From assembly GCA_030694985.1 (NCBI GenBank), contig JAUYTV010000017.1, positions 3,747-67,746 of the forward strand: a stretch of 64,000 nt of DNA. Direction: 5' to 3'. This DNA comes from Methanoregula sp. (GTDB taxonomy: Archaea > Halobacteriota > Methanomicrobia > Methanomicrobiales > Methanospirillaceae). The position numbers and the translations under genes are program-made. Under the pieces are notes generated by a model. That model did not search any database. It was not told the DNA's origin and saw only the letters and a program-made list of their open reading frames with translations. How positions within the stretch are numbered: the stretch's first letter is position 1; each line of letters starts with the position of its first letter. This document shows, piece by piece, positions 43,709-63,646 of this stretch.

Positions 43709-44886
43709 GATGCGCGAGTGGTATTGAGGCGCGGCAGGTAGATGAACTTGCAATAAATATCGATCCAATCCAGGCCGGGGGAAGACTCACCGGTGATGCA
43801 ATGAAAGCGGTGATTGCATACGGTGACGGGTACTCGGTGTGTGATAACTGCCGCAAGCCAAACCGGCTTGACTATATCAGCAAACCCCCGATTGCAGAGT
43901 TCCACAAGGATGTTTCTGCATGGTTGAACATGGATTCAGTCCGAACGGTGCCCGGCGCCCGGCGGGGATTTCAGGCAGTTGCTCATACGTATGTTCAGAA
44001 GGGAGATCCGGTTCTGCTCACCTCGCTCTCACACTACACAGAGTTCCTCGCAGTAGAAGGAGCTGGAGGTATTGCGTGCGAAATTCCTGCAAACGACCAG
44101 CATATTGTCACTCCGGATGCCGCTGCTTTAAAGATCGAGGAGGTGAAAAAAAAGTTCGGCAGAGTGCCTGTCCTTGCCTTCATCGATCATGTCGATTACC
44201 AGTATGGAAATATGCATGACATAAAAGTGATTGCAAAGGTCTGCCACCAGTACGATATTCCCGTGCTTTACAATGGTGCCTACACGGTTGGTATCCTGCC
44301 AGTGAACGGCAAGGAACTTGGAGTGGATTTTGTTGTCGGTTCCGGACACAAGAGTATGTCTTCCCCTGCACCGTCCGGTATCCTTGCGGCGACTACAGAA
44401 CGTGCAGCAGAAGTCTTTCGCACAACTTCTATTACCGGGGATGTGACCCAGCGGAAGTTTGGGATCAAGGAACCCGAGATGATGGGCTGCACCTTAATGG
44501 GCGTTACGCTGATTGGGATGATGGCATCTTTTCCTCAGGTTAAAGAGCGCGTGAAACATTTTGAGCGTGAACTTGATAACAACAGGATTGTTGTTGATGC
44601 GCTTCTTTCAGTTGAGGGAACAAAAATCCTCTCAGAGATGCCACGGAAGCACACGCTGACACGGGCAGATACCATCGGTTCATTTGACAAAATAGCAGAA
44701 TCGCACAAGAAACGGGGTTACTACTTCTCAAATGCACTGGAAGAAAAGGGTGTGACTGGAGTAATTCCCGGTGCAACAAAAATCTGGAAGTTCAACACTT
44801 ATGGCATGACAAAGAAGCAGGCAGTGTATCTTGCAGAAGTGTTTGTCGAAATAGCGCAGGAGAATGGTCTCCTGCTACGGGCATAA
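43705..44886 (+). CDS. pscS: O-phosphoseryl-tRNA:Cys-tRNA synthase (SepCysS)
   Basis: INIDPIQAGG, YGDGYSVCDNC, PGARRGF, GSGHKS (PLP Lys), GCTL, KFNTYG. Confidence 0.95.
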   Translation: MRCASGIEARQVDELAINIDPIQAGGRLTGDAMKAVIAYGDGYSVCDNCRKPNRLDYISKPPIAEFHKDVSAWLNMDSVRTVPGARRGFQAVAHTYVQKGDPVLLTSLSHYTEFLAVEGAGGIACEIPANDQHIVTPDAAALKIEEVKKKFGRVPVLAFIDHVDYQYGNMHDIKVIAKVCHQYDIPVLYNGAYTVGILPVNGKELGVDFVVGSGHKSMSSPAPSGILAATTERAAEVFRTTSITGDVTQRKFGIKEPEMMGCTLMGVTLIGMMASFPQVKERVKHFERELDNNRIVVDALLSVEGTKILSEMPRKHTLTRADTIGSFDKIAESHKKRGYYFSNALEEKGVTGVIPGATKIWKFNTYGMTKKQAVYLAEVFVEIAQENGLLLRA

Positions 44887-45027
44887 GGGGCACAGTTTTT
44901 TTTTTAAAAACCCGGCAAATGAATGGTCTGAATTACCGGTATGCTTTAATACCCGATATGTCCCATGTTTCGTTATCCTGACGCGATGACAATGATGACA
45001 GGTAAAAATAGAGCAGGGTGATACCGG

Positions 45028-46506
45028 GTGTTTGAAAAACTGAATCTGAAAAAGACGATCGATGATGAAACCTTTGAAAAACCAATAGGCGACTTAAAAG
45101 AGCGCCTGAGTATTCTCCAGCGGACACTTCGCGATCTCAATATACCTGTCATCATCGTTTTAGAAGGATGGAACGCTGCCGGCATCACCCTTTCCATCCA
45201 CGAAATCATCCAGTCGCTCGATCCCCGTGGTTTCAATCTGCATTCAATTGACAATCCCAGTGATGAAGAAGAGGCACGTCCCTTCCTGTGGAGATTCTGG
45301 CTGCGTATTCCTTCAAACGGAAGGATCGCCATTTTTGCCCGCAGCTGGTACAGCAGGGCACTTGCAGAAAAACTCTCAAGCATTGGTTGGAAAAAATCAA
45401 TGAAAGATAAGGTCAATTCGATCAACAATTTTGAACGACAGTTAGCCGATAATGGAACCGTGATCATCAAATTTTTTTTACACATAAGTAAAGAAGACCA
45501 GAAGATGCGCCTGCTCGTGCGGGAACGAAACCCATTAACCGCATGGTTAGTTACTCCAAAGATCTGGAGTTTCCATCACCACTATGATGCCTATCTTCCA
45601 ATCATCGAAGAGTTCATTGAAAATACAGATGCCGCATATGCCCCATGGCATGTGATAGAAGCGACTGACCGGAAGTATACCATCTTAAAAATTTACACAA
45701 CTCTTGTAAAAACCCTTGAAAAGAAGGTTGCAGAAGCACAGAGGGGACAATTAAGGAAAAGTAAAACAAAAAGCCTGGTCAAACCCCCAAAAACTCCCGT
45801 CCACCGGAGGACAACTTCCGAATCAACTCATTCCAAGGAAGAATGTCATGATCTGCTCAACAATCTTCAGATCGAGATGCTGGAGCTCCATTACCTTTTA
45901 TTTAAGCGAAAGGTCCCGTTCATTATCGTTTACGAGGGGTGGGATGCTGCAGGAAAGGGTGGAAATATCATGAGAGTTGCCCGGTACATGAATCCTTTGG
46001 GATATGATGTGATTCCTGTTGCTGCACCAAACCAGAATGAAAAACAACATCACTATCTCCGGCGATTCATCAAGCATTTCCCCAGCGCAGGTCACATTGC
46101 CATTTACGATCGCAGCTGGTATGGCAGGGTGCTTGTCGAACGGGTGGAAGGGTTCTGTTCCGAGAACGAATGGCAGCGGGCGTACCAGGAGATCAATGAG
46201 ATGGAGCAGGATTATGTGGAGAGCAGTGGCGGCGGGATGTTAAAGTTCTGGTTAGAGATTGACAAAGACGAACAGCTCAAACGGTTCAAACAGCGGGAAA
46301 ATGATTCTCTCAAGCAATACAAGATCACTGAAGAGGACTGGCGGAATCGTGAGAAATGGGATCTGTACGATGATGCAGTTGATGAGATGCTGGCAAGGAC
46401 CAATACCCCGTATGCCCCGTGGGTTGTGATCGAATCCGATGACAAATGGTATGCCAGGGTCAAAGCATTGAAAATGGTTATTAATAATATTGAAAAACTT
46501 CTCTGA
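45028..46506 (+). CDS. ppk2: two-domain polyphosphate kinase 2 (polyphosphate:AMP phosphotransferase-like)
   Basis: Domain 1 EGWNAAG/ARSWY; domain 2 EGWDAAGKGG/DRSWYGRVLVERVEG; KITEEDWRNREKW. Confidence 0.92.
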   Translation: MFEKLNLKKTIDDETFEKPIGDLKERLSILQRTLRDLNIPVIIVLEGWNAAGITLSIHEIIQSLDPRGFNLHSIDNPSDEEEARPFLWRFWLRIPSNGRIAIFARSWYSRALAEKLSSIGWKKSMKDKVNSINNFERQLADNGTVIIKFFLHISKEDQKMRLLVRERNPLTAWLVTPKIWSFHHHYDAYLPIIEEFIENTDAAYAPWHVIEATDRKYTILKIYTTLVKTLEKKVAEAQRGQLRKSKTKSLVKPPKTPVHRRTTSESTHSKEECHDLLNNLQIEMLELHYLLFKRKVPFIIVYEGWDAAGKGGNIMRVARYMNPLGYDVIPVAAPNQNEKQHHYLRRFIKHFPSAGHIAIYDRSWYGRVLVERVEGFCSENEWQRAYQEINEMEQDYVESSGGGMLKFWLEIDKDEQLKRFKQRENDSLKQYKITEEDWRNREKWDLYDDAVDEMLARTNTPYAPWVVIESDDKWYARVKALKMVINNIEKLL

Positions 46507-46623
46507 TTTTTTTTAATTCGAAAAACCGCAGAAGAGTCCCAACGGTTTTTACCCTGCAATATTATCATTACCGGATAGTCAACATCCCCATAGAAAATCT
46601 TTCAGTAATTGGGTATGCAGAAA

Positions 46624-47835
46624 TCATTTTCCCGAAACAATCTCACTATTCAATGCAGTCACATACTGCAATTCCGTGCACGCTTGTGTGACGAGGGTAT
46701 CGATATCCATCTTCTGCTCGCATTCCCGTATAACTTCGAGTACTGCTGCAGTTGCTGGCATCTTTGGTACCGCCCGGCAGGCAAGATCTCCCGGGTGCGT
46801 ATCAAATGTCCCTATGCGGCGGGCCAGGGTGATGATCTCTTCCTTGTCGTACGTGATGAGCGGGCGCAGCACCGGCACAGTCACTCCTTTAGAAATCACC
46901 GAAAGGTTGGTGAGTGTCTGGGATGCAACCTGCCCGAGATTTTCACCGGTAATTATTGCGAGTGCCCCCTCGTGTTCCATGAGCCGGGCGGCAACCTGCA
47001 CCATAAAACGTTTGCAGATTACGCACCGGTATCTCGGGGGGATACGGAGTTCCTGCATCCGGTCATACAAGGGCTCGCTGTTTGCAATCACCATCATGAG
47101 CGGATTACCGGCACACCAGCGCGAGAGTCTTTTATGATTTTCTATAGCCGCACTCTTCACATCACTTCCTGCCCAACGCCCGCCATCAAGATGCAGGTGG
47201 GTAATCTCACACCCGCGTTTCATGGCAAGCCAGGATGCAACCGGTGAATCAATGCCAGATGAGAGTAAGACAAGTGCTCTTCCCTGTGTTCCTGATGGTA
47301 ATCCACCGGGAGCTGTAATCCGGGAATCATACACCAGACCGCCAAAATCCCGCACTTCAACAAAAATCTCATAGTCGGGGTTATCCAGATCAACAGAAAG
47401 TTTCGGGATATGCTCATAGATGGCTGATCCGATCCGCGCACCCAACTCCTGGCTGTCGAGCCCGCTCTTCTGCTGGCGTTTTGCCCGGACAGCAAAACTC
47501 ATGCCCGATGACAGGTGCGCTGATGCAAGCGCAACTGCTTCTGCGCAGAGATCATCGATATGACTGCTGGTCTTTGTACAGATGCTTACATCAACAAGAC
47601 CAAAAATACGCGACACGATATCTGCAATCTTTTCGGGGTCATCGCCAAAGATAAGGATGCGTCCCCGTGGTGTTTCGTAATGGCTGCGTATCCCTGAAGC
47701 GGTGAGTGCTTTTCCAATGTTTCGTAAGAGCAGTCCGATAAAATGATGTTTCACAGGTTCACTTTTTAAAAAAAGCTCGCCGTATCTTACCATAACCAGC
47801 CGCTTTAAACTGCCCTTGTCCACTACGGTTTGCAT
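46624..47835 (-). CDS. thiI: tRNA 4-thiouridine synthase ThiI (no rhodanese domain)
   Basis: VRYGELFLKS, THUMP domain, LLSSGIDSPVA PP-loop, GENLGQVASQT. Confidence 0.95.
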   Translation of the reverse strand: MQTVVDKGSLKRLVMVRYGELFLKSEPVKHHFIGLLLRNIGKALTASGIRSHYETPRGRILIFGDDPEKIADIVSRIFGLVDVSICTKTSSHIDDLCAEAVALASAHLSSGMSFAVRAKRQQKSGLDSQELGARIGSAIYEHIPKLSVDLDNPDYEIFVEVRDFGGLVYDSRITAPGGLPSGTQGRALVLLSSGIDSPVASWLAMKRGCEITHLHLDGGRWAGSDVKSAAIENHKRLSRWCAGNPLMMVIANSEPLYDRMQELRIPPRYRCVICKRFMVQVAARLMEHEGALAIITGENLGQVASQTLTNLSVISKGVTVPVLRPLITYDKEEIITLARRIGTFDTHPGDLACRAVPKMPATAAVLEVIRECEQKMDIDTLVTQACTELQYVTALNSEIVSGK

Positions 47836-47987
47836 ATTCTTATCAACTATTGATATTCAAGAGAGATAACCATTGGCGGGGATGTGCCGGCATTTTTTGT
47901 GGATTTTTTTCATCTTTTTATAGATCGGGAACCTGCCGGTTTTTTACTGAAAAAGAGTACTGACAACGAAATCATTTAATCAGGAGA

Positions 47988-48638
47988 ATGAAAATGTGTA
48001 CTTCAATGGCGAAAAAGGCGAGCAAAAAAATCGAACCCGAACCGTTGAAGTTGTTTTACATTTTTTACAACCAGGAGCGCTGGGACAACTGGGTAAAAAC
48101 TCTTACGGAAGCGAGTTTTGAAGCAGATCCAAAGAGCGAGGAGCTGCCCGAAGGGTTCCGGATACTAGACGGATTTTCAGTTGATATCACGGTATCGGTC
48201 CTAAAGATCATCAAGCTCTACCAGAACAAGCGGTACACTTTTGAAGAGGCAGTTGACAAGCTCTCGGAGGTTGAAGCAATTGTGATGTCACCTGCCCCTG
48301 TTGGCGATGTTGGCGAACTCATTGAGCTCCTCCAGCTTCCAAAACTGGCTCTCTTTGCCTCCTGCAGGCTCTATCTTGCCGGTGGTTTTGACAAAGATAT
48401 CAAGGCGCTTGTTAAAAAAGGCAAGGCTGAAGGAGAAAAGGATATGGAAAAGGCGCTTGCTACGGTATCAAATATTGGTGCTGCTGTCATTGACGGGGCA
48501 GCCTGCTGCAGCAAATATGTCAAAGAGGATCTCGAACAGACCTCACTCTTTGATGAATGGCTAATCGAGTGCGAGCGGATGGGCGAAGCAATGGTTTCGT
48601 TAAAGAACTTCGATGAATCCACCGGAGACGAGGATTGA
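47988..48638 (+). CDS. DUF2150-like conserved methanogen protein
   Basis: FYNQERWDNW motif, acidic helical protein; family recognised from memory. Confidence 0.7.
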   Translation: MKMCTSMAKKASKKIEPEPLKLFYIFYNQERWDNWVKTLTEASFEADPKSEELPEGFRILDGFSVDITVSVLKIIKLYQNKRYTFEEAVDKLSEVEAIVMSPAPVGDVGELIELLQLPKLALFASCRLYLAGGFDKDIKALVKKGKAEGEKDMEKALATVSNIGAAVIDGAACCSKYVKEDLEQTSLFDEWLIECERMGEAMVSLKNFDESTGDED

Positions 48639-49087
48639 TCGCTGACCGGGCACGGTTCCGGAATGCAAAAAAAATAGAGCGGATCACCGGCTATCGCCTT
48701 CCCGAGCTTGCATTTTCCGGTACCATGCTCGAAGCTCTTTGCTCGCGCCTGGATTATGATTCACTGGATTTTGGCGTAAGAGACCAGATCTTATCATTTT
48801 TTAATGATTTTCTGCGCTGCAATTGTAAGGATTCGCCTCTCTGCGGATGCCCGGAAAAAAAGTTTTCAAAACGAGTTATTGAGCTCCGGGAGAACGGGCT
48901 TGACCACCGGCAGATCGCAGTTTATCTGCAGGATGAGTATGGAATAGAATTATTTCCCGCAGATATTCTTTCGTTTTTAGAAGAGTCTGTGCACGTGCTC
49001 GAAGCAATGTCAGATGTTGCACGGTTGCAGGGACAAGGGGATCTGGCAAAAAAAACTGATGAGCACATACAGCTTATTGAGCGGTAA
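48635..49087 (+). CDS. conserved archaeal hypothetical protein (DUF5814-like)
   Basis: CNCKDSPLCGCPEKKFS, YGIELFPAD; overlaps the upstream stop. Confidence 0.7.
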   Translation: MIADRARFRNAKKIERITGYRLPELAFSGTMLEALCSRLDYDSLDFGVRDQILSFFNDFLRCNCKDSPLCGCPEKKFSKRVIELRENGLDHRQIAVYLQDEYGIELFPADILSFLEESVHVLEAMSDVARLQGQGDLAKKTDEHIQLIER

Positions 49088-49384
49088 TTTTTGGGATTTC
49101 CGGTATAAGCAATTCTATTGGGTGAACGGATGTTGCTGCATCTCGGGAAATCGTGCTATTTTTTAGGGAAATAATGTGTTGAGCATTTCCAAATAGGGAA
49201 TTGCGGGAGGTCTAAAAGATATTACTACCGCAAATTCTTCATATTCCCATTCCCGTAATCAACTTAACAATCTGCTGAGCTGTCACCGGGTCTAGGACTT
49301 GAGCCTTGACTAGCACCTCCATCGAGATAAACAGCGTCCAGAACACTTTCTTGACCTGCTCGTTCTTCCCGCACGCCTCTCCTT

Positions 49385-49678
49385 TTAACAGTGCTCGCAG
49401 AGATTTATGCCCGCCTCGCGATCGATCCACACAGCTTTCACAATCCCGCAGCCCGGGCACTTCTTAATATCCGCCGTCACCCGCGTGCATCGGGAAACAT
49501 CTACAGCCGGGGGCAGCGGGACCGAAGCGGTCTATTCTGTTTTCACCGCCTCATTGAAACACGAGCAGCAGATCCGGCGAGCCTTCTGTGGGTTCCTGGG
49601 CCGGGCCCGGCGCTCTTTACTATATTTTCCCATATACCAGGAGCCTTTCTCCTTGTAGACATAACACGCAGTCTTCGG
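49385..49678 (-). pseudogene. Cys-knuckle gene fragment of a tRNA-adjacent mobile-element relic
   Basis: ..RRICCSCFNEAVKTE*TASVPLPPAVDVSRCTRVTADIKKCPGCGIVKAVWIDREAGINLCEHC*; in-frame TAG at 49532-49534. Confidence 0.5.
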
Positions 49679-49730
49679 CTATGGGATCTCGAATTTTTTG
49701 TAATCACATGTCCGGATGGATCGGTCCTGT

Positions 49731-49931
49731 TTTGCTGCAGGAGCGTTCGTTTGCTGCACGTTTGCTGCAATTGCAGCAATCAATCGGGCAACGAAGAGGT
49801 GTGTGTTTTTCGATCCGGTCGTTTTTGGCAGAGATCGATTTTCGTTTGCTGCAATTGTGGAATTATGGAGACACTGAGATGTGTCCGGATCTGCTTGCTG
49901 AGTAGCAGTATAATTCCGGTTTTGCAGCAAA
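49731..49931. repeat. cluster of six TTGCTGCA motifs (direct and inverted), iteron-like
   Basis: Copies at 49731, 49750, 49761, 49845 (direct) and 49771, 49921 (inverted); perfect 18-bp palindrome TTGCTGCAATTGCAGCAA at 49762-49779. Confidence 0.8.
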
Positions 49932-50129
49932 TCACCTTCACTTAATACAGAATTATTATCAAATCAGTACCATTGCAGGAAACGGAGGCACCGGTGTTTT
50001 GGCCAACTCAGTCCTGACTGGATGAAAAGAGCTGCTTGTAAACTACTGGGCGACCGGGTAAGTCATATACGAGTGTCTGATTGAAGCGGTTTAAAAAGAG
50101 AACTGAACGATTCGCACTTCGCGTCCAGA

Positions 50130-50214
50130 TGCGAGGGATGGGATTCGAACCCAAGAACTCCTGCGAGACCAGGCCCTGAACCTGGCGCCGTTGACCTGGC
50201 TTGGCTACCCTCGC
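50130..50214 (-). tRNA. tRNA-Leu(CAG)
   Basis: GCGAGGG/CCCTCGC acceptor stem; CCAGG-TTCAGGG-CCTGG anticodon arm; long variable arm; GGTTCGAATCC T-arm. Confidence 0.97.
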
Positions 50215-50237
50215 GCCTGTATAGATTACGGTTGAAA

Positions 50238-50246
50238 TTAAATAAA
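50238..50246 (-). promoter_or_regulatory. candidate TATA box of tRNA-Leu
   Basis: TTTATTTAA on the minus strand, 24-32 nt upstream of the mature 5' end. Confidence 0.5.
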
Positions 50247-50257
50247 GATAGGGGTCT

Positions 50258-52120
50258 TTAAGCCTTTTTAGGGGCACCATTTTCATTAGATGCTTTTTTT
50301 AATTCCTGTTCACGGAGCTCTTTTCTCCGGATCTTTCCTGATATTGTCTTTGGTAAAGAATCAACAAACTCAATTACGCGGGGGTATTTGTACGGAGCAG
50401 TGACCTTCTTTACATGATTCTGAATTTCTTTAACCAGTGTTTCAGAGGGCTGGAATCCGGGTTTAAGGATGACAAATGCCTTGACAACCAGACCCCGGAT
50501 ATCATCAGGAGAACCGACAACAGCAGCTTCCTGTACCGAAGGGTGCTCAATAAGTGCACTCTCTACTTCAAAGGGTCCAATCCGGTAACCGGATGATTTG
50601 ATCACATCATCATCCCGGCCAATAAACCAGAGGTAACCGTCCTCGTCTTTGTAGGCTTTATCACCCGTGTAGTAATACCCGTTAACAAACGATTTTTTGT
50701 TCTCTTCAGGATTGTTAAGATATTCCTTAAACAATCCAACCGGGTGTGGATTTGTTTTGATCGCGATCCTTCCTTCTTCATGGAGGGGGACGGGTTTCCC
50801 CATGTCATCATGGAGTTCAACATGCCAGCCGGGTGAGGGTTTTCCCATGGAGCCGTATTTGGGAGTCATTCCGGGGAAGGTACCTACGCAGAGCACGGTT
50901 TCGGTCTGTCCGTATCCTTCGTAAATGGTCATGCCGGTTGCATCCTTCCAGGCTTTGATAACTTCCGGGTTTAACGGTTCACCGGCGCTTACGCAGTGAC
51001 GGAGCTCTGAAAAATCGAACTTATCGAGATCAGCTAATATCAGCATCCGGTAGATCGTTGGCGGGCAGCAGAATGTGGTGATACCATATTTTTCTATGAG
51101 CGGGAGAATCTCAGTTGCATTGAACCGGCTTCTTATGTCATAGACAAAGATTGCTGAACCTTCGATCCACTGGCCATAGAATTTTCCCCATGCACTCTTT
51201 GCCCATCCGGTATCTGAAAGCGTGAAGTGAAGATCATTTTTGCGCAGATCATGCCAGAACCGGGCAGTGACAATGTGTCCTAACGGATAGCTCTGGTCGT
51301 GCACCACCATCTTTGGCTCACCAGTAGTACCGGAAGTAAAGAAGATCACGAGTGGATCGGTGCTCCGGGTCTTTTTCATGCTGGGCAGATTAACAATTTT
51401 TGCCGACACTGGTGCAGGGTAATCAAGTTCGGTGCGATAATTGATCCAGCCCTGGCGTTTGCCATCAATCAAAACTTTACAAGAGAGAGACGGGCAGTCC
51501 TTTGCGATCTCTTCAATCTTGTCGGCCTGCTCTTCCATGGTGATGACCATTTTAATATCAGCGATATTAATCCGGTATTTCAGATCCTTTGGAGTGAGCA
51601 TTGTAGGAGCGGGACAGTACACTGCACCACGTTTGATAAGACCGAGGGTAAAAGTCCACCACTCAGGAACCCGTGGCAGCATGATAAGAACACGGTCTCC
51701 CTTACTCACACCATACTTGATCATGATATTTACGATCTGGTTCGAGAGTCGCATCAGATCCCAGAACGTGAAAGTCTTTTCTTTACCTTCCTGGTCAACC
51801 CAGAGCATAGCAAGTTTGTTCCGGTCCTTGTTAGCCCACGCATCGATCACATCAAAACCAAAGTTGAAATATTCAGGTACTTCAATGGCAAATTTCCTGA
51901 ACATTTCATCGTAATCCGGCATATTATGATCTCCAGGACCAAAGACTGGGCCGGCTGACGGCAGGGTAGTTGCACCAATCCTGTCAACTCCCGTACTTTT
52001 GGTGAGATGTGTGGTGCATGCCTCATTTACGAATTCGGAACGGGAAATTTTACGCTTCTCACACGATTTATCAATGCTTTTTGCAAGTGAATCGTCCATA
52101 GTGACAGAATACCGCACCAT
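50258..52120 (-). CDS. acyl-CoA synthetase (AMP-forming) with an N-terminal ribbon-helix-helix domain
   Basis: RHH pattern RYSVTMDDSL..SRSEFVNEA; FTSGTTGEPK, YEGYGQTE, YYTGD, SSGYRIGPFEVE, PKTISGKI. Confidence 0.92.
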   Translation of the reverse strand: MVRYSVTMDDSLAKSIDKSCEKRKISRSEFVNEACTTHLTKSTGVDRIGATTLPSAGPVFGPGDHNMPDYDEMFRKFAIEVPEYFNFGFDVIDAWANKDRNKLAMLWVDQEGKEKTFTFWDLMRLSNQIVNIMIKYGVSKGDRVLIMLPRVPEWWTFTLGLIKRGAVYCPAPTMLTPKDLKYRINIADIKMVITMEEQADKIEEIAKDCPSLSCKVLIDGKRQGWINYRTELDYPAPVSAKIVNLPSMKKTRSTDPLVIFFTSGTTGEPKMVVHDQSYPLGHIVTARFWHDLRKNDLHFTLSDTGWAKSAWGKFYGQWIEGSAIFVYDIRSRFNATEILPLIEKYGITTFCCPPTIYRMLILADLDKFDFSELRHCVSAGEPLNPEVIKAWKDATGMTIYEGYGQTETVLCVGTFPGMTPKYGSMGKPSPGWHVELHDDMGKPVPLHEEGRIAIKTNPHPVGLFKEYLNNPEENKKSFVNGYYYTGDKAYKDEDGYLWFIGRDDDVIKSSGYRIGPFEVESALIEHPSVQEAAVVGSPDDIRGLVVKAFVILKPGFQPSETLVKEIQNHVKKVTAPYKYPRVIEFVDSLPKTISGKIRRKELREQELKKASNENGAPKKA

Positions 52121-52288
52121 ACAGAATCGTTTAGTGGTGCAGAAGAAGAGGGTTTCGATTTATTTTGCACCACCCCCCGTTTGGAACTCCTGCAGAGTAA
52201 TGTGATATTATGAAACCGGATAAGAAGATATCAAAAAAAATGGGAGGATTTTTTTTTTAACTGAATCTCAAACATTGAACAAAAAAAC

Positions 52289-53635
52289 CTACTCTTCAGA
52301 CCGATTTCCTAATATGGAACGATATGTTCCCTGCGGTGCATGGATAATAAACCGGGCACCTTTGCCAAATGTTCCGTTTTCTGTGATGGTCAGCTTGGTG
52401 ATCGCAAGGATTTCCCGGGTTAAAAAGAGACCAAAGCCGGTATGTTTGAAAAACTCTCTCCTGAAGATCCTCTCTTTGGCATTATGCGGAATACCTGCAC
52501 CATTGTCTTTGATGATGATGTCGATGCCGTCACTGACAGACTCTGACAGGATCTCTATCTCACTCACCCGTTCACCGTGTCGAATGGAATTTTCAATCAG
52601 ATTGTAAAACACTTTTTCAAGTAATGGATCTGCATAAACTTCAATGGCTGCGAGATGCACTGTAACCCTGGTATGATGAATATCAAGAGTTGCCAGCGCA
52701 AGTGAAATGGTTTCAGCAACATTTTGCCATTGTGGGGAGTGAACACCAATATTCTGGTAGTCCCTGGTGAACAGGATCTGGTTTCTTATGGCATTTGCGG
52801 CAATTTCTTCCTTGGTTACATACGTCATTAACAGGGGATCTTTTATATCATCTTTTGAGAGTTCAAGATACCCGATGAGTGCGGTGAGCTGGTTGAGGAT
52901 ATCGTGACGGGTAATGTTGTTGAGCAGGTTAAGTTTCCGGTTTGCAACAATGAGTGAATCCTGTGCCTGTTTTTGTTCGGTAATATCTACAACCGTACAA
53001 TAAATTGCCGGCTCAGCGCAATCTGTGGCAGATACCAGTGCCCAGCGTTTATTGCCGTCAGCACAGGTAAATTTTATCTCAATATCTCCAATCCTTTGCT
53101 TATCGCGCACTTTTGAAAGAAACAATTCCCGATCAGGAGCTTCAGTAATGAGCTCAGGTAGCGTCTTTAACAGCAACACATCTCTGTCAAAACCAATTAA
53201 CTGTGAAAATTTTAAGTTGGGATCCCGGATAAGCAGGCTATCCCGGTCATAACTAAAAGCCCCTGCCTGTGAATTGAAAAATGAACCGCAGCTCCTGTCC
53301 CCCTCTTTCCGGTATTCCCTGGAATATGTTGATATCAGCACTCCGATGGAAACAAAAATAAAAAACCACACGGTTGCTCTGGCAAATATACCGGTATCCG
53401 GAAGACCGAGAGCATATACAAGACCGATATAAAGCCACCCGACAAAAACGGTGACAAATATGCTGATCTTGGGCCGGGTATATGCAATGAGCACTACCGG
53501 AATAAGGTAAAAGTAAGGAAATACATCATAAATTCCACGGGAAATCGAGATGTAAGTAATAACTATAGACGCAATAACACTGAGTGCGATAAAAATATCA
53601 TAGACAAATTTCTTTTCTTTACTGATTGGACGCAT
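52289..53635 (-). CDS. membrane-anchored PAS histidine kinase
   Basis: About four N-terminal TM helices; PAS; NITRHDILNQL; NLIENS, DNGAGI, HTGFGL. Confidence 0.92.
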   Translation of the reverse strand: MRPISKEKKFVYDIFIALSVIASIVITYISISRGIYDVFPYFYLIPVVLIAYTRPKISIFVTVFVGWLYIGLVYALGLPDTGIFARATVWFFIFVSIGVLISTYSREYRKEGDRSCGSFFNSQAGAFSYDRDSLLIRDPNLKFSQLIGFDRDVLLLKTLPELITEAPDRELFLSKVRDKQRIGDIEIKFTCADGNKRWALVSATDCAEPAIYCTVVDITEQKQAQDSLIVANRKLNLLNNITRHDILNQLTALIGYLELSKDDIKDPLLMTYVTKEEIAANAIRNQILFTRDYQNIGVHSPQWQNVAETISLALATLDIHHTRVTVHLAAIEVYADPLLEKVFYNLIENSIRHGERVSEIEILSESVSDGIDIIIKDNGAGIPHNAKERIFRREFFKHTGFGLFLTREILAITKLTITENGTFGKGARFIIHAPQGTYRSILGNRSEE

Positions 53636-53786
53636 TTTTTCTTTGCCTCTTACGTTATTTTGTTATTTTTAGATATTTACGGCAATCTGGCGTTAATATA
53701 GTGAGTTGTAGTTGTGCAATATAAAATTATGGTGGTTAAAAGAAAATGAAGGATTGCTTTTTATTTTAGAATCCGGAACAAAAATG

Positions 53787-54341
53787 TCAGGAAATATATC
53801 CCAACAGAAGTTCCAGTGCCTCAAGTTCTTGTTTTCCTCCGCACTTTTTGATAATGCCCGCATGATAATCGATCTGTTTTTTTAATTCAGGATCCCGGTT
53901 CATCACATATCTCGTGGCATGAACCGTTGCATCAATAATATTGTTAAAACCGCGATTTACCGGGTGCAAAGAAACTTTTTCAATAATCTCCTTTTCAAGC
54001 GTTAAGGTCACCATCAGAGCTCCAGCCGTCTTTTTTTCAATGGTGGTTGTAAATGCCGCCCATGCATCAGAGTCTTTTAACCTGTGCATCGTTCTGCCAT
54101 TGATCGTTTCTTTTAAAAAAGCATCATGGGAGAGATCTTCAAAGGCCGTTTTTACGTACAGGATCGGATCATACACAAAATTTGCCACCAGCCAACCATT
54201 TTTTTCAATATTTTTTGCTGTGTGGCTGCCGGAAAATAAGACCATCCTCGCTACTCCCTCTCTAAAAATTATACCCATGGGTGCAGCATTGAACTCTGTT
54301 GTTGCAATAACTTCGTTGATACCCGGTTTTAAGAGTCCCAT
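53787..54341 (-). CDS. DUF447-family protein (split-barrel)
   Basis: EVIATT..NAAPMGI..GSHT..N; NRGFNNIIDATVHATR. Confidence 0.85.
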   Translation of the reverse strand: MGLLKPGINEVIATTEFNAAPMGIIFREGVARMVLFSGSHTAKNIEKNGWLVANFVYDPILYVKTAFEDLSHDAFLKETINGRTMHRLKDSDAWAAFTTTIEKKTAGALMVTLTLEKEIIEKVSLHPVNRGFNNIIDATVHATRYVMNRDPELKKQIDYHAGIIKKCGGKQELEALELLLGYIS

Positions 54342-55135
54342 TGCCAACCCTCACCAAGTGCTATAAAGATTGCCGCTATGGTGATATCGGCAATTGAACC
54401 GGGATTGATGTTCTTATCAATGCAGTCCTGGTCAAAATTTTCTAAAGTCTCATTCCCATCGAGCACTTCACGGGCTTTTCTCATGATCTCCAGTGCTATA
54501 GGAACCCCGTGCTTTTTTATAATGAATGTATCTGGTTCCTGGGCAAGAAGCGTAATGAACATCTGGACAATTGCCTGCCGTCCCGTTCCAGATTGTTTGA
54601 GCAGATCTGCACCGCGACGGGTTAAAGGAAATCCCGTTATCCATTCTCGTGCCACCATGTCGTTTGCAGCGGAATGCTGCATGACATCGAGAAGTGTCAT
54701 TTCACGTTCCCGTAACACAGCAAGCGATTTTGGATCATTCACATCCAGTTCATCTCCAGAACAGGTGTGGACTTTTGTTAAGCCAAATGCCCGGTAAAAA
54801 GCAACTGCATCGGAGGTATCTGTTCGCTCAATCGCTTTCATTGCCCCTTCAATGGAACGACCGTATATCAGGGGAATTAAGAGGATGAATGCACCAAAGT
54901 GAGTGTTTCCCCCTTTGTGACAACTGGTCTGCTCGACAGCATGCCGTATGATCTCCCCAATCCGTCCCTTTCCCGTCTCTGCCTCCTCAAGCGCCGGGCG
55001 TGCAAAGATAGTGGATGCTAAAAAATGTTCAAAACGTGTTTCAGGATAATCATGGCAGCGATCAACATTGCCGGGTTTTGGAAATGCGCAGACTTCCAGC
55101 ATCATGGCAAGCTGGGCCTGTTCAGCTGCTTTCAT
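54329..55135 (-). CDS. citG: CitG-like triphosphoribosyl-dephospho-CoA synthase family protein
   Basis: LEV..PKPGNV, GGNTHFG, DTFIIKKHG, NPGSIAD. Confidence 0.85.
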   Translation of the reverse strand: MKAAEQAQLAMMLEVCAFPKPGNVDRCHDYPETRFEHFLASTIFARPALEEAETGKGRIGEIIRHAVEQTSCHKGGNTHFGAFILLIPLIYGRSIEGAMKAIERTDTSDAVAFYRAFGLTKVHTCSGDELDVNDPKSLAVLREREMTLLDVMQHSAANDMVAREWITGFPLTRRGADLLKQSGTGRQAIVQMFITLLAQEPDTFIIKKHGVPIALEIMRKAREVLDGNETLENFDQDCIDKNINPGSIADITIAAIFIALGEGWQWDS

Positions 55136-56261
55136 CAGAAGGCATGTCATGAAAAACACCGCACATCAATGTATCAGAGAGATCACGCTTGAGACGCATA
55201 TATTCTTTCTTTGATAATCCTTCCTGCTTTAGGGTCATATCCCGAAACATGCAGGGCGATGAAGTCTTGCAGCACCAGGCAAGACTGCCAAAACAGGTCT
55301 GCTTTCCGTTTTCAAGAGGCACACCTTTTACAGCTTCTTGTTTCATGTGAATGTAATTTTCTTTTGTTATTCCCATGCGAGACAATGTCGGGATGAGGGG
55401 GCACTCTTTTACCGGCATGCAGCAGAATGCCAGTGCACGGATATCTCCCCCGCGACACAGCTGCTTGGGTGCATTGTACCATCCCTCTTCATCCGCATAG
55501 CGGGTAATGGCTGCATCAAGACCCGATAGGGTACGAATATCTGACTGCCGTGCAAGTGAAACCATATCTGCTCCATGTGAGAGCATATCCTTCATCTTAT
55601 CAAAACCGGTTATGGAATTATTGGCAATCAGCATCATTGGACAACTGTTCCGTATCTGCCGGAGTTTTGCAGAGCCAAAGTCCATGAGATCGATATGCAG
55701 AATATCTGCACCGGCAGCCCAGAGTTTTATTGCAAGTTGACGATCATCAGCAGCAACCCCAGCCCGGATTTTAACCGAGACCGTTACACCCTCTTTTTTT
55801 AGCGCCCTGACAACCGTTTCAAGTTCACCTGCATTTTTTAAGTAGTGTTCTCCACATCCTGCGGCAATCATTTCGGGCTGACGGCAATGAGCATCGATCT
55901 CATACACAACCCTGTCACCAATTACACGTGCCAGATTTCTGAAAGATTCCGGTGCGCTTCCACGCAGATTTATCCCCAGAATGACATTGTTTTTTTCCAT
56001 CATTGCGATCTGTTTTGTCAATTCTTTGACTGGATCTTCGTATAGGAATTCCCTGCGATCTCCTTTGGCAGCTATGCTCTTTGCCGCATCCATAGTCTTC
56101 TGATCGATCGAATATCCGCCAATTAAAGCAAAGCCGATATGTGCGCTTCGTTCAATCGCATAGGATGCATCTACAATGCCAGCCATGGATGCAATTCCCA
56201 CAGGTGTCTTAACAACCCGATCATTGATGAGCAGCCCGAAACGCTCAAATGCATCCATCAT
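55122..56261 (-). CDS. methanogenesis marker 9 domain protein (FMN TIM-barrel plus Cys-rich C-terminal domain)
   Basis: ASMAGIVD, EIDAHCRQ, SVKIRAG, IANNS; CRGGD.R.LAFCCMP.K.CP..CFGSLAWCCK..PCMFRD; start placed at ATG 56261. Confidence 0.85.
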   Translation of the reverse strand: MMDAFERFGLLINDRVVKTPVGIASMAGIVDASYAIERSAHIGFALIGGYSIDQKTMDAAKSIAAKGDRREFLYEDPVKELTKQIAMMEKNNVILGINLRGSAPESFRNLARVIGDRVVYEIDAHCRQPEMIAAGCGEHYLKNAGELETVVRALKKEGVTVSVKIRAGVAADDRQLAIKLWAAGADILHIDLMDFGSAKLRQIRNSCPMMLIANNSITGFDKMKDMLSHGADMVSLARQSDIRTLSGLDAAITRYADEEGWYNAPKQLCRGGDIRALAFCCMPVKECPLIPTLSRMGITKENYIHMKQEAVKGVPLENGKQTCFGSLAWCCKTSSPCMFRDMTLKQEGLSKKEYMRLKRDLSDTLMCGVFHDMPSDESS

Positions 56262-61996: not shown

Positions 61997-63646
61997 CTAT
62001 ACAGTTCCCGTTGAATTCACTGTTGAATTCAATGCTGCGGTTCCAACGGGAGTAACTGTTGGACTAACCGTTAGAGTTGGAACGGGGGTTGGCGTAGGTT
62101 TTGGTTTGAGATCAACCTGCATGTCGATCATGCCTCTGGGTGTTTTTATTGTCTCACTGCCACTCAGCACACCATTTTTATACACTTCGATGGTGAGCGT
62201 ATTGGATGAACCATCCATTTTCTGGATTGAAGCTACTACCGGGCCGTCAATGGTCGATACCGGATAGATTTTATCGCCTGTATCCTCTACCGGAGACTGG
62301 CTGCCTGCAGTTCCAAACGTACCGCTGTATTTACCTGAGTACGTAATCCGCACCCAGACGCCATTTGGAGGTATGGCAAATTGAGGTTGTGCAGTTGGAG
62401 TCTGGATTACTTCCTGAGTGACAACCGGTGTCGGGGATGGAGTCGGTGTAGCCGTTTTAGTAATAACGGTTGTGGGAATGGGTGTAATTGTCGGTGTGAT
62501 TGCAGGAGTTGACGGAGTTGTTCCTATTGAATTCGAAAAGATTAGAATGCCACCAATGACTACTAAGATTACTATTACAAGCGCTGCGATAGTGACGATT
62601 TTACCTTTTTTTGGTGCAGGTGCAGGTGCTGGTACTACTGGGGGTGTCGGGGGAGGTGATGCAGGCGTTGTGGCATTGGCAGGCACAGGTTCTGTGGACG
62701 GTGACTGTGCGGCTGGTTCTGCCAACGGGACAACTAAGGGAGGTTCGACTGCCGGTACTTCTACTACGGGCGGAGGAGCCGGATAGTGACGGGGAACGAG
62801 TGGTGCAGGTTCGCTGCTGCGGGGTTTTGAATCTTCAATCAATGGTTCAATTGAGTGAATGACCTCATCAAGCGTACGATCTTTTCGATCTCCGCCAAGA
62901 CCAAAGACAGGGAATGTTTGAATCTGCACTTGGGGAACAACTGATGGTACAGGGGGTTCAGACGGTGCTATAACCGGTGAGGTTGAAATGATTGCCTGAG
63001 GAACTGCAGGTACCTCGTTTGAGATTACAACCGGTGTTCCGCACCGGTTGCAAAACACTGATTCCGGAGGAACGCGGCTGCCACACCGCGAACAGAAAGA
63101 ACCGACAGGAAGCGTAGTTGTCTCAACGGGTCGTGGCATTGCAGGAGCGGATTCAACAATATTTCTTATCGGCCTTGTGATCTCTATCTTCTTCTTTGGT
63201 GAAGATGCAACGGGGCTGACTGGCGGAGAGGTGGGAGTGATTACAGTATTTTGGGAAGATATTTGATTAGACACTGTGGTATCAGGAATTTCCCGGTAAT
63301 TGTCCACAGATGATATCTGTGCAGTGAGTGCCTTTAACCAGTCATCCCGTTCGCGCCTTCGTTCTCCACTGGCTACGCGCGGGAACGTGAGAATCATCTG
63401 GCGCGCAGTACCTCCCACAGATAAAATGGAAAACGTTAGGATTGGATCACGAATTGCATTCTCGCCACCATCAACAGTCCTGATATTTATAATCAGGATC
63501 TCCTGCGGAGGGATGAGACCTTTCTTGCCGTCAATAAGAACAAGACGTTTATTCGTGAGAACTGCCTCAAACACAACCGATTTTACTTTGATGTTATGAG
63601 CCTGGAGGATTACAGACTCATCACTGCCCAGTTCAGGAAAAACCAT
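61997..63646 (-). CDS. single-pass membrane protein: N-terminal PH-like domain, double zinc ribbon, Pro-rich linker, TM, Thr/Pro stalk, beta-rich C-terminal domain
   Basis: LTNKRLVLID; CSRC..CNRC; PEPP/PT repeats; TM IAALVIVILVVIGGILIF. Confidence 0.85.
   Translation of the reverse strand: MVFPELGSDESVILQAHNIKVKSVVFEAVLTNKRLVLIDGKKGLIPPQEILIINIRTVDGGENAIRDPILTFSILSVGGTARQMILTFPRVASGERRRERDDWLKALTAQISSVDNYREIPDTTVSNQISSQNTVITPTSPPVSPVASSPKKKIEITRPIRNIVESAPAMPRPVETTTLPVGSFCSRCGSRVPPESVFCNRCGTPVVISNEVPAVPQAIISTSPVIAPSEPPVPSVVPQVQIQTFPVFGLGGDRKDRTLDEVIHSIEPLIEDSKPRSSEPAPLVPRHYPAPPPVVEVPAVEPPLVVPLAEPAAQSPSTEPVPANATTPASPPPTPPVVPAPAPAPKKGKIVTIAALVIVILVVIGGILIFSNSIGTTPSTPAITPTITPIPTTVITKTATPTPSPTPVVTQEVIQTPTAQPQFAIPPNGVWVRITYSGKYSGTFGTAGSQSPVEDTGDKIYPVSTIDGPVVASIQKMDGSSNTLTIEVYKNGVLSGSETIKTPRGMIDMQVDLKPKPTPTPVPTLTVSPTVTPVGTAALNSTVNSTGTV

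Follow-up and report, generated by a model that had tools for sequence, protein, structure and literature searches.

PutA (proline utilisation A) of Enterobacteria, the textbook trigger enzyme, carries an N-terminal ribbon-helix-helix (RHH) domain in front of catabolic enzyme domains, represses its own gene and putP, and switches via flavin reduction and membrane binding; its site, GTTGCA, has a TGCA core as well. NikR holds two RHH dimers apart by a central body and reads inverted half-sites with a long spacer, about 22 bp from centre to centre. BirA, a ligase that forms adenylates, binds DNA through its N-terminal domain and represses the pathway to which it belongs; the enzyme-bound acyl-adenylate is the corepressor, so that repression is tied to the availability of the acceptor. 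To our knowledge, there are very few archaeal regulators for which the metabolite, the operator and the regulon are all known. One archaeal case is RbkR, a winged helix-turn-helix (HTH) domain joined to a CTP-dependent riboflavin kinase, which controls genes for biosynthesis and transport in its own pathway and was found by comparative genomics of operators before being confirmed in vitro (PMC5397151). Then, could an acyl-CoA synthetase of a methanogen also be the repressor of its own pathway? The question is raised by a gene of Methanoregula sp., named RHH-MACS here, in a stretch of 64,000 nucleotides (assembly GCA_030694985.1, contig JAUYTV010000017.1, positions 3,747 to 67,746 of the forward strand; hereafter the window, numbered from its first letter), which encodes an RHH domain in frame with a MACS-type acyl-CoA synthetase.

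Based on domain searches, structure models and the comparison of orthologous promoters, we consider it likely that RHH-MACS is an archaeal trigger enzyme, that is, one chain that is both an acyl-CoA synthetase and a transcription factor repressing the genes of carboxylate uptake and activation. A catalytic and a DNA-binding domain are present in one translated chain, and comparative genomics places a putative operator at promoters of its own pathway. Like PutA, it has an N-terminal RHH domain fused to an enzyme, several short promoter sites, and its own gene and a transporter gene as predicted targets. However, PutA is a bacterial flavoenzyme with proline dehydrogenase and P5C dehydrogenase (PRODH/P5CDH) activities, whereas the enzyme here is an ANL adenylating ligase; the fusion has neither of the two dehydrogenase Pfam domains. 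Apart from the RHH fold, no sequence relationship to PutA was found, and in the Foldseek search described below the DNA-binding domain of PutA ranks only 31st. NikR shares the N-terminal position of the RHH domain and the strand R3-x-T/S5-x-T7, and is the best profile match in the PDB. The match is restricted to the RHH part, the NikR C-terminal domain (Pfam) being absent and the remainder being an ANL enzyme; unlike this enzyme, the NikR body is a small ACT-like nickel-binding tetramerisation domain, and its half-sites lie ~22 bp apart, against ~32 bp here. BirA likewise joins a DNA-binding domain at the N-terminus to an adenylate-forming ligase, and by analogy it offers the mechanistic model that we favour, although it combines a winged HTH with a fold like that of class II aminoacyl-tRNA synthetases and a protein acceptor, while RHH-MACS combines RHH, the ANL fold and CoA as acceptor. 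Finally, RbkR is also an archaeal enzyme with an N-terminal DNA-binding domain whose operator was inferred by comparative genomics, but it serves cofactor metabolism and is widespread in Archaea, whereas RHH-MACS is confined to Methanomicrobiales in the genomes sampled. That is, RHH-MACS works like PutA, NikR, BirA and RbkR and is a member of none of these families. Full-text searches of the literature found no description of an RHH/CopG-acyl-CoA synthetase fusion or of a trigger enzyme in Methanomicrobiales.

A sequence-only reading of the window had proposed an RHH domain joined through a Gly/Pro/Thr linker, without a stop, to a complete AMP-forming ligase, and all parts of this proposal are borne out. 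The open reading frame (ORF) starts with ATG and encodes 620 aa with zero internal stops (coordinates are given in Table 1). Pfam RHH_1 (cut-off 20.5 bits) matches residues 5-34, scoring 27.0 bits when the N-terminal piece is searched alone and 21.4 bits with the full-length chain, while AMP-binding is found at residues 93-468 (230 bits) and AMP-binding_C at residues 518-596 (89 bits). Between them lies a Gly/Pro/Thr-rich stretch, residues 39-66, which AlphaFold2 models as disordered, the predicted local distance difference test (pLDDT) being <50 for residues 39-62. The public records for the fusion proteins list the AMP-binding domains alone and never the RHH domain.

In addition to the Pfam score over the curated cut-off, the N-terminal region shows the layout of the RHH superfamily, a strand followed by two helices within ~40-45 residues. 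A profile of 23 orthologous N-termini, searched against the PDB, matched RHH domains only (NikR, MazE, Rv0298 and HicB). The top match is the RHH domain of E. coli NikR (1Q5V residues 1-42), aligned from residue 1, with MQRVTITLDDDL...RSEAI in NikR facing the fusion consensus MVRYSVTMDDtL...SRSeWI and the strand pattern R3-x-[ST]5-x-T7 in common. In the AlphaFold2 models, both that of the isolated domain and that of the full-length chain, helices span residues 10-23 and 27-37/42 with pLDDT 82-91. Foldseek, queried with the 45-residue model against the PDB, returned almost wholly RHH proteins with TM-scores of ~0.7, among them StnY, VapB, CopG-DNA complexes, MazE, TacA, NikR, Arc, AmrZ, antitoxins and the PutA DNA-binding domain. 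The strand residues R3, S5 and T/S7, which are the DNA-contacting ones, are as invariant as the half-site described below. RHH proteins are obligate dimers whose two-stranded sheet enters the major groove and which recognise short repeated sites; the domain here would do likewise, and the repeated TGGTGCR sites conserved at three promoters are indirect evidence of it.

The fusion recurs far beyond the window. Forty-one related genomes were searched whole, and the stop-free alignment of residues 1-620 extends throughout the genus and into other families of the order; 24 loci start with MVR[YF]SV[TS]MDD and continue in frame into the enzyme. In a sample of 400 genomes of the order, matches to residues 1-110 sit in open frames >600 aa in four families of Methanomicrobiales, and in a 400-genome sample of the phylum the close RHH copies are confined to this order and all lie inside frames >600 aa, with three weak exceptions in frames of 139-219 aa. 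With the loci of the phylum sample added, the fusion is in frame in all 33 non-identical loci. A peptide-pattern scan of 185,579 species genomes gave 160 confirmed loci, of which the best 80 are the species loci counted hereafter. All of these 80 belong to Methanomicrobiales (Methanoregula, Methanoregulaceae, Methanoculleus, Methanomicrobiaceae and Methanospirillum, including M. hungatei); 68 have complete frames >550 aa, 4 run off the locus and 8 are interrupted. The recurrence of the architecture, which the earlier reading had named as a check, is put at 33/33 non-identical loci and at 68 of the 72 complete species-representative loci. As for stops between the two parts, 8/80 loci have interrupted frames (L146, L153, L157, L176, L185, L186, L192 and L193), all from one series of metagenome-assembled genomes (MAGs) with isolate names starting "MFD". 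Because the breaks are scattered, at 59-531 aa, and are limited to this single series, they suggest indel errors of assembly rather than gene fission or pseudogenes.

Selection acts on both domains. The ratios of nonsynonymous to synonymous substitution (dN/dS, Nei-Gojobori, 33 full-length genes) are 0.11 for the RHH domain, 0.38 for the linker and 0.05 for the enzyme, and the invariant residues S5, L12, S26, R27 and S28 are each written with 3-5 synonymous codons. This ratio, together with the silent changes seen at invariant residues, shows that the N-terminal domain is translated and that purifying selection on it is strong; the linker, on the same comparison, behaves as a tether. As read from these alignments, the fusion is real and old, far beyond what chance would give.

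The promoter of the gene itself holds a conserved candidate operator. It reads TGGTGCA-N24-26-TGCACCA-N14-15-ATGGTGCG in 33/33 loci, a layout that defines the half-sites A, B and C of Table 1. The arms carry 1.8-2.0 bits per position and the flanks <0.7, that is, the arms are near-invariant while the spacers drift; the distance from the start of A to the start of B is 31-33 bp in 71 of 74 species loci. The arm variants TGGTGCG and CGCACCA lead to the consensus TGGTGCR. Half-site C coincides with the first codons of the gene, where A-TGGTGCG matches the consensus exactly. The Val2 codon is GTG in 33/33 and in 77/80 loci, against just 32% GTG among the Val codons of these genes, while at the conserved Val6 all four Val codons are in use. 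The layout would be self-referential, in that one predicted operator half-site (ATG-GTG-CGN) encodes the first residues of the protein's own DNA-reading strand. Between arms A and B lies a TATA-like box, TCATAAAG in the genus and TTTATATA or TGATATA in other families. With the centre of the TATA box ~25-30 nt from the ATG, on its upstream side, we predict a transcript with no leader or hardly any.

Table 1. Coordinates of the RHH-MACS gene, its promoter elements, the half-site clusters of the same genome and the HTH_17-MACS genes (plain numbers are window positions; C, L and G numbers are our handles for contigs, loci and genomes)
Feature	Coordinates	Strand	Basis or gene concerned
Whole gene, RHH - linker - MACS-type acyl-CoA synthetase	50258..52120	(-)	620 aa + stop; Pfam; in-frame orthologues
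RHH DNA-binding domain, residues 1-38 (strand MVRYSVTM, helix 10-23, helix 27-37)	52007..52120	(-)	Pfam RHH_1, NikR profile match, AlphaFold2, Foldseek, dN/dS
Flexible linker, residues 39-66; length and sequence vary between genera	51923..52006	(-)	pLDDT, alignment, dN/dS
Acyl-CoA synthetase, ANL superfamily, MACS/MbcS-like, residues 67-620	50258..51922	(-)	Pfam, PDB 3ETC, NCBIfam, motifs
Met67 codon, internal "HNM" family residue	51920..51922	(-)	Short paralogues and fusion orthologues
Half-site A, TGGTGCA, upstream of BRE/TATA, starts -52 from ATG	52166..52172	(-)	Exact in 60/80, at most 1 mismatch in 74/80 species loci
Predicted core promoter: BRE-like (B recognition element) CGAAA 52157-52153, weak TATA-like box 52150-52143	52143..52157	(-)	33-promoter alignment; assignment inferred
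Half-site B, TGCACCA, between TATA box and start codon, starts -21	52135..52141	(-)	Exact in 80/80 species loci; 2.0 bits per position
Half-site C, TGGTGCG, within codons 1-3 (ATG GTG CGG = Met-Val-Arg), starts +2	52113..52119	(-)	Exact in 33/33 and 77/80 loci
Upstream oligo-T runs, T7 at 52281-52287 and T8 at 52233-52240	52233..52287	(-)	Read from sequence; terminator function inferred
Half-site cluster 1, own promoter			RHH-MACS downstream
Half-site cluster 2	C34:14901-15027		PrpE-like ligase of 631 aa; top-scoring NCBIfam model is propionate-CoA ligase (736 bits, under the 955 cut-off)
Half-site cluster 3	C51:3835-3937, plus proximal site ~30 bp before ATG		AceTr-family carboxylate channel, NPAPLGL motif; NF038013 192 bits, cut-off 50
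HTH_17-MACS	L023:1773-3644 (G032:C1 ~1228446-1230317)
HTH_17-MACS	L025:1782-3641 (G027:C1 ~2669465-2671321)

Evidence independent of the gene's own promoter comes from sites in trans. In the 2.49-Mb assembly of the same genome the A-B pattern has a single occurrence. With a cluster defined as three or more half-sites within 70 bp, only three clusters are found, against ~0.34 expected, and the two that lie outside the own promoter precede a PrpE-like propionate/short-chain CoA ligase and an AceTr-family carboxylate channel. The PrpE-like promoter has four half-sites, with starts 32, 21 and 67 bp apart and the last one ending on the ATG; they are kept in nine loci of the same genus while the intervening DNA diverges, and are absent in five loci from two families without the fusion. 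Upstream of AceTr, the nearest orthologues, one of them from another family, have 3-7 core hexamers (TGGTGC/GCACCA), against none or a single one for the AceTr paralogues. The distances between paired half-sites are dominated by 21-23 and 31-33 bp. Among 24 chosen genomes, the B-C pattern occurs in 14/14 with the fusion and in 1/10 without it, and a reversed-pattern control gave 2 matches. The exact A-B pattern is found in other genomes at the own promoters and, in one genome, at the AceTr promoter; its occurrences in genomes lacking the fusion have GC-rich spacers only and are taken as chance. Three half-site pairs with the "right" spacings (C30:27772, C34:176514 and C36:58505) lie inside GC-rich coding sequence and were also judged to be chance. 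As a negative control, the promoters of the short tandem MACS paralogue are free of half-sites in 35 of 37 cases, and this paralogue was accordingly rejected as a co-regulated gene. Based on the half-site clusters shared by the PrpE-like ligase and AceTr promoters, the predicted RHH-MACS regulon very probably consists of genes for the uptake and activation of carboxylic acids.

It should be noted that several observations weigh against such an interpretation. Residues 2-8 of the RHH domain have the alternating pattern of a strand and are unpaired in the AlphaFold2 model, which is expected, since the RHH sheet forms only in the dimer and the model is a monomer. The E-values for the 45-residue domain are weak (0.08-1 with Foldseek and 0.012 with the PDB profile), as is expected of Foldseek for a very short domain. 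The window's own TATA-like box, CTCTTCTT, is weak. As own-promoter sites travel with the gene, only the trans sites count as independent evidence, and the AceTr site set consists of just 4 loci. Last, a fourth promoter gives a mixed picture. About 75 nt upstream of a LeuA/CimA-like gene of the 2-isopropylmalate-synthase family, the same genome has TGCACCA-N15-TGGTGCG (C34:33703-33731). This pair is absent in nine closer loci of the same genus, and it is found upstream of the orthologue in another family, the Methanoculleus type (G027, C1:1599851-1599880; G032; G062, C1:1160006-1160035). The LeuA/CimA-like gene could be a lineage-variable regulon member tied to isoleucine/leucine synthesis, or the pair could be chance, and we do not claim it.

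The region upstream of the LeuA/CimA-like gene has features of its own. At C34:33740-33850 (L086:1390-1500), ~50 nt, ATGACnGCTCGCAAGGATnTTGCGGGGGATCGTCnTCTTCnCCGATAG, are kept in the genus, and a part of them, GGGGAATTGCCTTCTT, is kept across other families of the order. The ~50-nt sequence looks like a leader or a short upstream ORF, and still farther from the gene there is a tRNA-like sequence. Control of branched-chain amino acids, through a leader peptide or an RNA element, could be its role.

The enzyme part was compared with solved structures and curated families. The closest solved relative is the medium-chain acyl-CoA synthetase of Methanosarcina acetivorans (MacsMa, PDB 3ETC; 1e-180), to which it aligns end to end, and the best-scoring NCBIfam model is MbcS (methylbutyryl/branched-chain acyl-CoA synthetase, NF047394); unlike the fusion, MacsMa and MbcS have no DNA-binding domain. 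MacsMa, for which 2-methylbutyrate is the preferred acid, uses this substrate according to PMC10455477. ANL/MACS enzymes were recognised by AMP-binding plus AMP-binding_C and by the motifs A3 TSGTTGxPK, A5 YGQTE, A7 YxTGD, the A8 hinge and the A10 Lys. In the sequence we read TSGTTGEPK (the P-loop), YGQTE, YYTGD, GRDDDVIKSSGYRIGPFEVE and PKTISGKIRR with the A10 lysine, or as fuller strings FFTSGTTGEPK, EGYGQTET, YYYTGD, GRDDDVIKSSGYRIGPFEVES and PKTISGKIRR. With both Pfam domains present and the core motifs intact, the enzyme part is complete and presumably active, a MACS/MbcS-like ligase whose substrates would be short or branched acids. On its score it is MbcS-like and not an MbcS equivalog (532 bits, against an equivalog cut-off of 850). 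The AcsA acetate--CoA ligase model TIGR02188 scores 320 bits (cut-off 725) and PRK04319 scores 448 bits (cut-off 729). As it scores far under the cut-offs of these acetate-CoA ligase models, the label of a strict acetyl-CoA synthetase, which many public records give it, was rejected. The sequence-only reading had supposed a trigger enzyme that senses acetate or short-chain acids; its transcriptional part gains support from the operator and the trans sites, and an acetate-specific enzyme does not stand, MACS/MbcS enzymes being closest.

Another fusion of the same enzyme family is found within the order. In another family, a second MACS paralogue just upstream of RHH-MACS has an in-frame N-terminal HTH_17 domain (excisionase/MerR-type), with scores of 54 and 47 bits against a cut-off of 27. 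HTH_17-MACS joins this domain to the same enzyme start and occurs in 16 genomes, where its frames span 440-676 aa. Two such genes were inspected (Table 1), and no TGGTGCR sites were found upstream of either. Both share the word GTTGCAGACA 20-45 nt upstream of the start (L023 ~1720-1745, L025 ~1745-1765), which may be a candidate operator of the HTH_17 fusion. Since two different DNA-binding domains have been fused to one enzyme family, the enzyme body appears to be useful to a regulator.

In the mechanism that we propose, the N-terminal RHH domains of two chains would pair into one DNA-reading dimer, and a flexible linker of ~28 residues would tether each of them to a catalytically complete synthetase for short or branched carboxylates. 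The dimers would read the 7-bp half-sites TGGTGCR upstream of BRE/TATA, between TATA and the start, and in the first three codons. Archaeal repressors block polymerase recruitment from sites between TATA and start, and on the start itself; occupied sites would here block TBP, TFB or RNA polymerase and lead to negative autoregulation. Because half-sites A and B are 31-33 bp apart (~three helical turns) and the 32-bp spacing recurs at other targets, an oligomer of at least four chains is suggested, whose enzyme bodies would hold two RHH dimers ~three helical turns apart, as the NikR central domain does. At the distal AceTr sites, binding could either repress or activate. The catalytic state of the enzyme (apo, acyl-AMP-bound or CoA-bound) would alter the affinity for DNA. 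In the BirA-like version, which we prefer, repression would be exerted by the enzyme loaded with acyl-adenylate, a form that builds up once free CoA becomes scarce. The data fit the reverse polarity equally well, with DNA bound by the apo enzyme and released upon substrate binding. A bolder picture would have MACS enzymes recruited twice, with RHH and with HTH_17, as metabolite-sensing factors, and RHH-MACS as a BirA-like tetramer with its RHH dimers ~32 bp apart that shuts off AceTr, the PrpE-like ligase and itself and so protects the CoA pool; taken as a whole, it is a tentative picture that we put forward with doubt.

Could the protein be a plain autoregulator, whose RHH domain damps the enzyme and its partner genes independently of substrates, products and catalytic state? 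The operator and regulon evidence fits such constitutive negative feedback equally well, and with a disordered and poorly conserved linker an allosteric coupling between the domains is not obvious. However, a free-standing RHH gene would do for this purpose, yet the fusion is kept across four families, and the independent fusion of HTH_17 to a paralogue points to something that the enzyme body adds, e.g., sensing or spacing. The known fusions PutA, BirA and NadR, moreover, respond to ligands. So does RbkR (PMC5397151). We regard a regulator without metabolic sensing as unlikely. Less probable still is that the TGGTGCR sites belong to a different transcription factor, with the RHH domain serving oligomerisation, RNA binding or other DNA. 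The assignment of the RHH domain to the sites is by co-occurrence alone, and this is what such a proposal draws on; but the PrpE-like trans sites are present only in genomes with the fusion, the B-C pattern divides the chosen genomes in the same way (14/14 against 1/10), and R3, S5 and T/S7 match the half-site itself in invariance. In addition, half-sites at such wide spacing would be expected if a large body keeps the RHH dimers apart, as it does in NikR.

Two other alternatives concern the start of translation, because the sequence-only reading had taken Met67, at 51922, as a possible start of the enzyme and had envisaged long and short isoforms. The position is right, but the residue is not a start of its own. 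Short paralogues without the RHH domain open with M(G/S/A)E..HNM.DY and start 4-7 residues upstream of the "HNM" Met, which marks it as an internal family residue and not an old start. Among the fusions, position 67 is Met in 66/79 and Ile, Leu or Val in 13/79 (codons e.g. ATC, ATT, CTC), and no Shine-Dalgarno-like motif before Met67 is conserved among the orthologues. On these three grounds, Met67 was rejected as an ancestral or conserved internal start, and a conserved pair of isoforms finds no support; as the alignments read, internal initiation is not a conserved property of the family. For this genome alone, an internal start at Met67 could give an enzyme-only form beside a long form that is mainly regulatory. 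The window sequence cctGGAGatcataatATG has GGAG at 51931-51934 (-), 8 nt before Met67, and Met is the commonest residue at the position, as counted above. Against this, the GGAG goes back to a change of a Glu codon to Gly that this genome alone has, its close relatives having GAAGAT in that place, and both the internal "HNM" Met of the short paralogues and the 13 fusions without Met tell against it too, so that two isoforms seem quite improbable even here. It is scarcely credible, finally, that the annotated start is an artefact, with Met67 as the true start and the 66 upstream codons as a chance-open untranslated leader. The public records without an RHH domain would agree with it. However, the dN/dS of 0.11 and the synonymous variation at invariant residues, the conserved ATG with promoter elements directly upstream, the 13/79 orthologues without Met at position 67 and the Pfam RHH_1 score above its cut-off all contradict it, and codon-level conservation has effectively refuted it.

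Around the gene, the upstream neighbour (52289-53635, minus strand) encodes a membrane PAS histidine kinase, whose weak best matches are AtoS-type kinases. Unlike this genome, 42 of 70 other species have the short MACS paralogue in its place, and the adjacency of the kinase is therefore not conserved. The oligo-T runs listed in Table 1 sit 3' of the kinase gene (stop at 52289-52291). As these T7 and T8 runs resemble an archaeal terminator, they form a putative terminator, and the synthetase gene is probably under a promoter of its own. Downstream of the synthetase gene, 49100-50250 contains no long ORF and no Rfam match, and a Rfam scan of window positions 44000-56000 gave no match. At E <= 1e-5, NCBIfam gave no match for three further sizeable ORFs of the window, 47988-48638 (+, 216 aa), 48635-49087 (+, 150 aa) and 61997-63646 (-, 549 aa).

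Here, sequence alone yields a candidate regulator with its 7-bp half-site, the layout of its promoter and three predicted target genes, all of which are directly testable. If RHH-MACS is a trigger enzyme, as we think likely, the ANL superfamily of adenylating enzymes, which is very large, would join the few enzyme classes that also serve as transcription factors, and would do so in Archaea. The widespread labels "Acetyl-CoA synthetase" and "AMP-binding protein" overlook the DNA-binding domain. The finding would bear on how the uptake and activation of volatile fatty acids, namely the ones assimilated by these methanogens, are controlled in the hydrogenotrophic Methanoregula, Methanoculleus and Methanospirillum of peat, sediments and digesters.

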